Source: an uncultured Bacillales bacterium (lineage in GTDB: Bacteria > Bacillota_I > Bacilli_A > RF39 > UBA660). From it: a DNA stretch of 64,000 bases. A model generated the notes under the pieces. The model was not told the origin of the DNA. It made no database searches and was given only the letters and a program-made list of their open reading frames with translations. Made by a program: the position numbers and the translations under genes. This document shows, piece after piece, positions 12,707 to 13,705 of this stretch. The DNA lies in contig CAMOSQ010000001.1 in the NCBI GenBank assembly GCA_946624985.1, positions 12,733 to 76,732 of the forward strand, given 5' to 3'. The first letter of the stretch is position 1; each line of letters begins with the position of its first letter.

Positions 12707-13705
12707 ATGGCTTGTCCAAAATGTGGTTTTCATGTAACTGATGATATGATTTTTTGTCCTGAATGTGGTACTAATTTAAGGCAAAATATTCAAGCTCAAC
12801 AATTAAATAGTAGTTTAGATGGTGTTACTTCTGAGCAAGAAGATGTTCAAAGTAATTTAAGTGGTTCTACAAATAATAGGAAAAATAGTAATTTTAGTAA
12901 GATTTTTGTTGTATTAATAGTTATTGTTTTAATTATTATTGCTTATTCATTTATGAGTTCTAAGGGCTCTTCTAAAGCAAATAATTCGGTAGATAATAGT
13001 AATCAAATTGAGGAAAATGAAGTCTTTGAAGAAAATAATAATGATGGTTCTATTAATAATAATATAGAAAATAAAAAGCCTTTAATTACTGATGAAAAAA
13101 TTGTTGGAGTAGTAGACCCAAGTACTAATTTAACTTATGATAAAACTGGTGCATTTTTAATGGAAATTGAAAATGTATCTACTGATTCTAGTGGTAATGT
13201 ACTTGTTTCTGGAAAGATTCAACGTGGAATAATTAATATAAATGATAAGGTTCATCTTATTGGTCTTGATAAAGAAATAAAAAGTGTTGATGTTATTGGT
13301 ATTGAAAAGGATGGAAATAACATTAATTCGGCAGAATTTGGAGATAATGTTTTACTTACTATTAGTGGTGTATCGTCTGATGATATTCAAATAGGTCAGG
13401 CTATAATACAACCTAATTCAATTAAGTCTATTACTAAGTATGAGGCACATGTTTATTTGTTTACAAAGGAAGAAGGTGGGCGTCATACTCCGATTTTTAC
13501 TGGTTATAGGCCAATAATTCGTTTTAGAACATTTCGTTTAAAAGGTGAATTTAGTTTTTCTGCTGATGCTATTTATTGGGGTGGCGATTCATTAGATACA
13601 ACAATTGAATTAGAAAATGGTATTCCATTGGAAGTTGGAACTGAGTTTGATGTTATGGAGAGTGAAAGAATAGTAGGTAAAGGAACTGTTGTAAAAGTCT
13701 ATTAG
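12707..13705 (+). CDS. Zinc-ribbon / single-TM protein with C-terminal EF-Tu domain II + III homology, no G domain
   Basis: CPKCG...CPECG ribbon. TM [29 protein letters not shown]..., [32 protein letters not shown] and [10 protein letters not shown] align with EF-Tu FxMPVEDVF, [32 protein letters not shown] and GRTVGAGVVxK. Confidence 0.8.
   Translation: [332 protein letters not shown]

Follow-up and report, generated by a model that had tools for sequence, protein, structure and literature searches.

A 64-kb stretch of DNA from an uncultured Bacillales bacterium (contig CAMOSQ010000001.1; here called the window) carries an open reading frame (ORF) of 332 amino acids with an ATG start at positions 12707 to 13705 on the plus strand (stop codon included). 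Its product is predicted, from domain searches and a structural model, to consist of a zinc ribbon (ZnR), a single transmembrane (TM) helix, and a stalk, followed by the fold of domains II and III (D2 and D3) of elongation factor EF-Tu. As judged by sequence, it belongs to a broader family in which both the type of anchor and the combination of domains vary. The family appears to be a sizeable, previously unrecognized group derived from the EF-Tu gene, tuf, with a new cellular location, and the window protein seems to be a divergent, stand-alone member of it. The D2-D3 module is very probably displayed outside the cell.

The N terminus (residues 1 to 24; 12707 to 12778) is a four-cysteine ribbon of the form CPKC…CPEC (C3-x2-C6 … C17-x2-C20), a predicted zinc site that is expected to face the cytoplasm. 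Pfam matched it to PF13248 Zn_ribbon_3 (residues 2 to 24; E = 1.1e-7; 31.5 bits, cutoff 27) and to PF13240 Zn_Ribbon_1 (27.1 bits, cutoff 25), and an AlphaFold2 (AF2) model of the protein, built from the family alignment, gave it a per-residue confidence (pLDDT) of 85 to 88. A polar spacer (residues 25 to 65; 12779 to 12901), also predicted to be cytoplasmic from the AF2 model and the flank charges, ends in RKNSNFSK, with three positive charges and no negative ones. The only hydrophobic segment of the protein follows, a single TM helix at residues 66 to 85 (12902 to 12961; Kyte-Doolittle mean, 3.0) that was placed by hydropathy and flank charges and was modeled as a helix at residues 63 to 84. 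The stalk (residues 86 to 134; 12962 to 13108) is rich in Asn, Ser, and Glu, varies in length and sequence within the family, and is predicted to be disordered (pLDDT of 34 to 38 over residues 87 to 129), as are residues 37 to 60. The next segment (residues 135 to 152; 13109 to 13162) carries the family motif VDPxTNLTYD(K/E)xGAFLM in place of the EF-Tu connector between the G domain and D2 (…IPxPxRxxDKPFLM); in the family alignment, L151 does not vary at all, and D145 and F150 hardly do.

The remainder of the protein is modeled with a pLDDT above 90 (residues 140 to 332). The D2 beta-barrel (residues 147 to 237; 13145 to 13417) was matched by PF03144 (GTP_EFTU_D2) at residues 166 to 233 with a marginal score (30.9 bits, cutoff 30.3), and in the PDB alignment it begins at residue 218 of Thermus aquaticus EF-Tu. 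The D3 beta-barrel (residues 238 to 332; 13418 to 13702), which includes KEEGGRHTP, was matched by PF03143 (GTP_EFTU_D3) at residues 238 to 331 (E = 3e-16; 60 bits, cutoff 27) and likewise aligned with PDB chains. Positions 206 to 392 of the NCBIfam EF-Tu models (394 positions) aligned with residues 145 to 331 (E = 5e-43), and EF-Tu chains in the PDB matched at E = 2e-36. A Foldseek search with the model identified the ordered part as D2 and D3 of EF-Tu in one rigid unit (1aip_A; E = 5e-20; root mean square deviation [rmsd], 1.3 Å over 189 columns). A sequence-only reading of this DNA had described a double CxxC ribbon, one TM helix, an Asn/Ser-rich linker, and about 190 C-terminal residues homologous to D2 and D3, and it had anticipated PF03144 and PF03143 without PF00009 as well as a Foldseek match to EF-Tu; all of these descriptions agree with the searches and the model. 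The D2-D3 homology, together with the ZnR-TM N terminus, also bears out its proposal of a tuf-derived module fused to a membrane anchor.

The G domain of EF-Tu is missing, as the sequence-only reading had stated. Pfam found no PF00009 match in the protein, and a tblastn search of the whole window with the EF-Tu G domain returned a best E value of 4.2, with no remnant of the domain upstream or elsewhere and no tuf gene. The upstream neighbor, ftsH, stops at 12631, leaving a spacer of 75 nucleotides (nt) ahead of the ORF, the distance given in the sequence-only reading. The whole-protein scores are far under the EF-Tu cutoffs (TIGR00485, 136.5 versus 522.4 bits; PRK12736, 147.2 versus 452 bits). 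The window protein thus has the D2/D3 fold of EF-Tu, with the same inter-domain packing (1.3 Å) and the GGRHTP loop, but not its G domain, its full-length score, or its tRNA contacts. Where EF-Tu has the G domain, the window protein has a zinc ribbon, a TM helix, and a stalk; its module is predicted to be extracellular, and its tRNA-contact and otherwise invariant positions are relaxed. It is not the same polypeptide as cytoplasmic EF-Tu but the product of a separate, G-domain-less gene in a distinct clade.

A word-indexed search recovered about 30 nameless proteins of 267 to 354 residues with the same layout and 32 to 48% identity to the window protein; full-length EF-Tu entered the list only from E = 2e-33. 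In all, 31 anchored homologues were counted in this search. A profile of 26 family members (alignment A1) was then searched against 1.84 billion (1.84e9) representatives clustered at 50% identity, and the best 150 matches all had E values below 1e-69. Truncated EF-Tu and obvious assembly chimeras were left out, after which about 70 of these 150 clusters were counted as membrane-anchored proteins with D2-D3. They include ZnR-TM-D2-D3 (28 clusters, plus variants), TM-D2-D3 (20 clusters), and a form in which an "FDPxTGQPI" N terminus precedes the TM helix and D2-D3 (7 clusters). Further forms among the best 150 are lipoprotein-signal-D2-D3, tandem (D2-D3)x2, and anchored full-length G-D2-D3, with the domains confirmed by Pfam. 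Many representatives that matched as G-D2-D3, or as G-D2-D3 behind a TM helix or lipoprotein signal, were rejected as truncated true EF-Tu or assembly chimeras; P0268, P0303, P0252, P0308, P0278, and P0265 are tuf chimeras of this kind among the top matches. The window protein scored 379 bits against the family profile (E = 1.5e-108) and could be aligned end to end with the other 25 members of A1. It has the N-terminal anchor, low-complexity stalk, YD(K/E)xGAFL motif, D2, D3, and …VTKVY end that define the family.

In a scan of one genome per species, members were found only in low-GC (26 to 37%) metagenome-assembled genomes (MAGs) from the guts of pig, mouse, rabbit, goat, and human (Hadza). 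A survey of taxonomic spread, suggested by the sequence-only reading, yields low-GC animal-gut MAGs, mostly labeled "uncultured Bacilli/Tenericutes." Every family locus is from a MAG of animal gut or rumen, and for the window organism the sample names tentatively suggest sheep rumen. Some family loci carry odd labels (Actinomycetes, Muribaculaceae, Lachnospiraceae), which we take to be binning or labeling noise because all family loci have a GC content of 26 to 37%. At one locus (L001), a second, paralogous ZnR-type member (7297 to 7632) starts approximately 5.7 kb downstream of the first and ends at the contig edge, so some genomes carry more than one copy. No names for family members were found in the source databases (NCBI/ENA/Logan), where a protein identical to that of the window (P0001) is likewise nameless, and no description of the family was found in the literature on anchored, truncated, or paralogous EF-Tu. 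The architecture thus does not belong to a characterized family in these sources, in line with the earlier remark that no such protein was known.

A phage, plasmid, or defense origin was considered and rejected. Searches of phage and plasmid collections and of IMG/VR yielded ordinary tuf matches from about residue 130 on and revealed no anchored copies; no PADLOC-DB family matched the window protein, and PHROG matches were confined to the generic ZnR-TM anchor. A single IMG/VR match reached query residue 76, at 31% identity (positions 3374 to 4072 of the 4,287-bp contig IMGVR_UViG_3300022555_002045), and may belong to an anchored member of the family, in this case on a contig classified as viral.

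Several features favor a position of the D2-D3 module on the outer side of the membrane. The 65-residue N terminus, with its four-cysteine ribbon and no signal peptide, precedes a single TM helix, an arrangement that points to an N-in/C-out plan. The protein would therefore be a type II membrane protein with a cytoplasmic zinc ribbon, a TM helix, a stalk of about 50 residues, and D2-D3 outside the membrane. Across 36 members, the charges flanking the helix are +105/−11 on the N side and +106/−78 on the C side. In four members, a classical lipobox stands in place of ZnR-TM: L014, with MKRKILTAILYVTLCGTIVMGAVGC-S (…GAVGC-SKN); P0203, with …LIGC-G; P0231, with …MTGC-N; and P0234, with …FSGC-E. 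All four retain the motif YDExG(A/D)FL and D2-D3. Such members are exported by definition, which argues that the module itself is exported. The neighbors at nine family loci include ZnR-TM proteins with TSP3/VWA domains and lipoproteins. The extracytoplasmic placement that the sequence-only reading had made conditional on a cytoplasmic ribbon is thus favored by the lipoprotein variants, the net charge on the N side, and the neighboring ZnR-TM proteins with VWA/TSP3 domains. The same layout, in which a short four-cysteine ribbon and a single TM helix carry a C-terminal domain outside the cell, is found in TcaA (NF053815) and in other Firmicute ZnR-TM proteins with Pfam DZR/Zn_Ribbon_1 N termini. 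With TcaA, however, only the anchor (residues 2 to 83) aligns (17 bits, cutoff 550), and the ectodomain is unrelated. Genes for a penicillin-binding protein (PBP), MraY, and FtsW lie near one family member, and the host bacterium is probably wall-bearing and host-associated.

By the Nei-Gojobori method, applied to unsaturated family pairs (L009/L010/L011/L013; dS, 0.13 to 0.41), the ratio of nonsynonymous to synonymous substitution rates (dN/dS) of D2-D3 was 0.06 to 0.19, and it was 0.10 for the pair L001/L003. For the N terminus and stalk it was 0.3 to 0.56. As a folded unit of two barrels, D2-D3 is maintained under purifying selection.

A distance-based neighbor-joining (NJ) tree was computed from 191 D2-D3 columns of 43 family sequences and 31 EF-Tu sequences; the latter were fetched with biased patterns, and EF-Tu from gut Bacilli served as stand-ins for the tuf of the source genome. 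The split between the family and EF-Tu had a bootstrap support of 87.5%, with long branches in the family and short ones in EF-Tu. The window protein grouped inside the family on one of the longest branches; no relative is more than 47% identical to it, and its identity to EF-Tu is 37 to 42%. The conservative members, by comparison, reach 77% identity to EF-Tu of gut Bacilli (P0133, and P0163 from "Candidatus Faecisoma sp.," a genus placed in Mycoplasmatota incertae sedis). Such identity to EF-Tu of the same kind of organism agrees with the view that the family arose when this lineage duplicated the tuf gene it already had. The tetrapeptide PNSI was discarded as a family signature: it occurs in 17 of the 31 EF-Tu sequences, a set that was itself retrieved with a PNSI pattern.

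The constraints on individual residues were mapped to T. aquaticus numbering through a HMMER alignment. Nineteen positions in D2 and D3, the aminoacyl-tRNA contacts according to the literature on the 1TTT ternary complex, are 97 to 100% invariant in the 31 EF-Tu sequences (81% for R274) and are kept in 45 to 88% of 40 family members. A twentieth tabulated position, K376, is variable even among true EF-Tu. The window protein keeps 7 of the 19 (E226, E271, N285, R330, H331, T332, and E390); the changes include D227N, F229S, I231D, R274G, Q341I, T350K, and G391S. EF-Tu shows no variation in 79 columns; at 33 of these the residue is retained by at least 80% of the family, and at 35 it is retained by the window protein. 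Column entropy averages 1.39 bits in the family versus 0.70 bits in EF-Tu. Other positions are constrained in the family specifically: Q254, T264-T265, P312→A, K219→G, and P220→A, the latter two within VDPNTNLTYD(K/E)xGAFLM. On these alignments, the constraints specific to EF-Tu are lost in the family, and the relaxed tRNA-contact residues suggest that the role in translation has been lost as well.

Related anchored proteins combine the EF-Tu domains in other ways. In a goat-caecum Bacilli MAG (JAFQCG010000024.1; locus L010), a 411-residue protein encoded at 5044 to 6279 has an FDPxTGQPI-type N terminus, a TM helix, a stalk, and a G domain joined to D3 without D2; its gene sits directly upstream of a D2-D3 member at 6287 to 7225. 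It defines a small family of TM-G-D3 proteins (P0060 to P0066; 354 to 450 residues), one of which has a zinc ribbon (P0066). Disruption of the G3 motif (DxxG) is frequent among them, a sign that they may be membrane-anchored pseudo-GTPases. In P0217, P0317, and P0235, an anchor precedes G-D2-D3 (495 to 550 residues), and the P-loop, DxxG, and NKxD have decayed to increasing degrees, with GHVDHGQEK, ACNH, and NNCD as examples. Among these G-domain relatives as a group, examples of altered motifs are DMPEH, DMPAH, or DMPSN for DxxGH, GHVDHGQEK for the P-loop, and NNCD or NTNN for NKxD. They resemble the family in their anchors, stalk, lineages, and descent from tuf; they differ in having a G domain with degenerate G1, G3, and G4 motifs, in some cases without D2, whereas the window protein has D2 and D3 only. 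The decay of the nucleotide-binding motifs is consistent with an extracytoplasmic placement. So is the 815-residue protein P0183 from an unrelated high-GC lineage, in which Pfam identified D2-D3 within a lipoprotein: a lipoprotein signal and PASTA are accompanied by two copies of a unit made of the ribosomal L7/L12 C-terminal domain, EF-Tu D2, and D3. In a 749-residue protein, also high-GC (P0202), a signal peptide is accompanied, by Pfam, by L12 C-terminal domains and a pair of D2-D3 units. Both would be exported proteins built of domains from the translation apparatus.

Taken as a whole, the best explanation of these results is a surface-anchored, tuf-derived, adhesin-like D2-D3 binding module, a reading that we regard as evenly poised between true and false. 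The family would have arisen from tuf in low-GC Bacilli of the gut or rumen and would then have gained Sec-type anchors (ZnR-TM, FDPxTGQPI-TM, or a lipoprotein signal). Without a G domain, without access to GTP or aminoacyl-tRNA, and with its tRNA contacts relaxed, the module would no longer act in translation; at the surface, D2-D3 would bind the host, the extracellular matrix or mucus, or another component of the envelope. The adhesin-like or ligand-binding role, considered separately, is an analogy that we hold tentatively and at somewhat less than even probability. It is favored because the fibronectin-binding regions of Mycoplasma pneumoniae EF-Tu (amino acids 192 to 292 and 314 to 394; PMC6822514) correspond to D2 and D3. 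Outside a cell, these domains have a single activity with an experimental basis, namely the binding of ligands by EF-Tu at the surface. The gut or rumen origin of all family loci is in keeping with this explanation. The sequence-only reading had offered a surface adhesin, a decoy or sensor, and a membrane tether for tRNA or EF-Ts as possible roles; of these, the adhesin appears to be the best supported and the tether is disfavored.

Four observations weigh against this explanation as a whole. The D2-D3 modules are acidic (pI of 4.9 in the window protein; family mean, 5.5), whereas accounts of moonlighting adhesins usually appeal to heparin- and plasminogen-binding motifs that are rich in Lys. 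Core members retain many EF-Tu residues (GGRHTP, IEDVFTITGRGTVVTG), which could reflect a constraint of the fold or another interaction that has been kept. The Lys/Arg counts are equal on the two flanks of the TM helix, so that the N-in orientation is supported through net charge alone. Finally, no branch of the family is more divergent than that of the window member, whose ftsH/parA context is not common to the core family; the function of this member may therefore differ from that of the core, and conclusions drawn from the core may not fully transfer to it.

A different reading, which we consider unlikely although it deserves to be taken seriously, would make the module part of an envelope complex, in a structural or regulatory capacity, as the extracellular partner of the products of a conserved gene cluster; together these could form an envelope-stress or surface-assembly module. 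This co-directional cluster lies 5′ of core members at L003 (partial), L007, L010 to L013, L034, L083 (59 to 7973), and L084 (1 to 7983), and it accompanies both the ZnR and the FDPxTGQPI anchor types, a conservation that speaks for a joint function. It encodes a Band_7_1/SHOCT (SPFH-like) protein; a protein of about 500 residues with two zinc ribbons, approximately 70% identical between distant loci and without a Pfam family; a ZnR protein with Yip1; a protein of 520 to 575 residues, with WG repeats in L084; a ZnR-TM-TSP3-VWA protein of 830 to 960 residues; and a 190-residue protein with a TM helix and a C-terminal zinc ribbon. The first cluster genes may resemble the YdjI/G/H (SamGHI) membrane-stress module of Bacillus subtilis, which would also fit such a complex. 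However, none of the cluster genes is present in the window, where the D2-D3 gene lies between ftsH and parA, and the cluster is absent from the available flanks of L005, L006, L014, L030, and L085. NCBIfam and PDB searches yielded nothing usable on the functions of the cluster proteins, and the co-location could simply be that of a surface-gene island. Downstream of the D2-D3 gene, L083 carries a large serine recombinase (9090 to 10673) and L084 a fragment of an ISL3 transposase (10646 to 11251); the surface-gene cluster may lie beside mobile DNA in some genomes.

It is improbable that the family serves as a decoy or sensor, in which a surface-exposed EF-Tu tail would catch EF-Tu-recognizing phage proteins, bacteriocins, contact-dependent toxins, or host antibodies or would signal their presence through the cytoplasmic zinc ribbon. 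The family evolves fast compared with EF-Tu, as seen in its column entropy and long branches, and it shows paralogue expansion and domain shuffling (two copies at L001; G-D3, G-D2-D3, and tandem D2D3 forms). Both traits are typical of conflict-facing surface proteins and count in favor of such a role. Against it stand the dN/dS values, which are well below 1, and the outcome of the phage, plasmid, IMG/VR, PADLOC, and PHROG searches described above. Moreover, the known toxins and phage factors that exploit EF-Tu act in the cytoplasm.

Still less credible is a tether in the opposite orientation (N-out/C-in), by which the module would face the cytoplasm and bring aminoacyl-tRNA, EF-Ts, or ribosomes to the membrane. 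KEEGGRHTP and E390 are kept in the window protein, and the equal Lys/Arg counts on the two TM flanks would allow it. However, the translocation of a 65-residue, four-cysteine N terminus without a signal peptide is unlikely, the orthologues with lipoprotein signals are exported, the window protein has lost 12 of the 19 tRNA contacts (F229, I231, R274, Q341, and T350 among them), and domain I of EF-Tu is required for binding both tRNA and EF-Ts. The last alternative, in which the ORF has no function and is either what is left of a decaying tuf paralogue or a chimera produced by metagenome assembly, is effectively refuted: tuf often yields chimeric contigs, several of them among the top representative matches, but the ORF is intact with its own Shine-Dalgarno (SD) sequence and terminator, a family-specific motif spans the junction, the gene and its context recur in independent assemblies, and dozens of intact orthologues are under purifying selection, which also disposes of the decaying fragment that the sequence-only reading had named as an alternative.

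The recurrence just mentioned concerns an ENA scaffold (L081) and a Logan assembly (SRR873610; L082), which carry the same gene in the same context, with three amino acid differences and the identical downstream gene order parA-parB-mscS-DUF951; the window gene is therefore not an assembly chimera. Only six substitutions separate it from these copies, too few to estimate dN/dS within the species. At no other family locus were ftsH or parA found as neighbors, near-identical strains excepted, and this context was ruled out as a family-wide feature. Within the window, an SD-like sequence, AGGTGAGGTGG, was read directly at 12690 to 12700 (plus strand), 6 nt 5′ of the ATG. The spacer between ftsH and the ORF also contains a weak promoter-like sequence from a consensus scan, TTGATT-17-TATTAT with a TG extension (12643 to 12671, plus strand); the scan of the region returned 14 such sites versus 10.3 expected from shuffles. 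A terminator-like hairpin followed by a T-rich tail begins 8 nt past the stop codon (13713 to 13745, plus strand), the one site found by a hairpin scan in which 0.2 was expected from shuffles. The downstream gene, soj/parA, begins at 13948. Farther along the window, a putative S10-Clostridia ribosomal-protein leader (RF03136; 38.5 bits; 24232 to 24339, plus strand) precedes the S10-spc-alpha operon (about 24353 to 38304). Directly 5′ of this leader, the gene at 22861 to 24132 is not tuf and encodes a 423-residue protein with an N-terminal TM segment. A 460-residue polytopic membrane protein encoded at 20174 to 21556 (plus strand) has, by eye alone, the look of an ArnT/PMT-type glycosyltransferase.

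The nearest functional parallel to a surface-anchored D2-D3 module is EF-Tu itself, which has been described as a moonlighting surface adhesin in, for example, M. pneumoniae, M. hyopneumoniae, and Lactobacillus (PMC6822514, PMC5593925). In those cases the protein has no secretion motif, and its export is unexplained (PMC6822514). Whether surface EF-Tu is functional or a by-product of lysis is still unsettled, since the protein carries no signal for export and translation holds its sequence fixed (PMC6822514). The window family shares with moonlighting EF-Tu the proposed placement of the same module at the surface and a host-associated, low-GC, Gram-positive or Mollicute-like setting. The two differ in that moonlighting EF-Tu is the translation factor itself, whereas the family is encoded by separate genes with their own anchor or signal, free of translational constraints.

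These comparisons suggest that the debated surface "moonlighting" of EF-Tu became a dedicated job in low-GC Bacilli of the gut and rumen. It is a reasonable possibility, held with a little less than even confidence, that duplicates of tuf acquired Sec or lipoprotein anchors, that their GTPase was lost or disabled, and that they are now evolving as true surface proteins in the forms D2-D3, tandem D2-D3, G-D3, and G-D2-D3. Few moonlighting surface proteins are reported as often as EF-Tu, and a conserved, anchored family that is under purifying selection and freed of translational constraints would be natural evidence that extracellular D2-D3 is useful. If true, this would be the first genetic evidence of a selectable extracellular function for the EF-Tu fold and a textbook example of duplication as an escape from adaptive conflict; it would also make defined, constraint-free proteins available for finding the ligands of surface EF-Tu. 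A protein of this kind would offer a clean experimental handle, since one could express it, delete it, or use it as bait while leaving translation undisturbed. More broadly, domains of translational GTPases would be recruitable as extracellular modules, a second lineage having joined D2-D3 with L7/L12 and PASTA, and the family marks the surface-protein repertoire of the poorly known, uncultured Bacilli of the gut and rumen.

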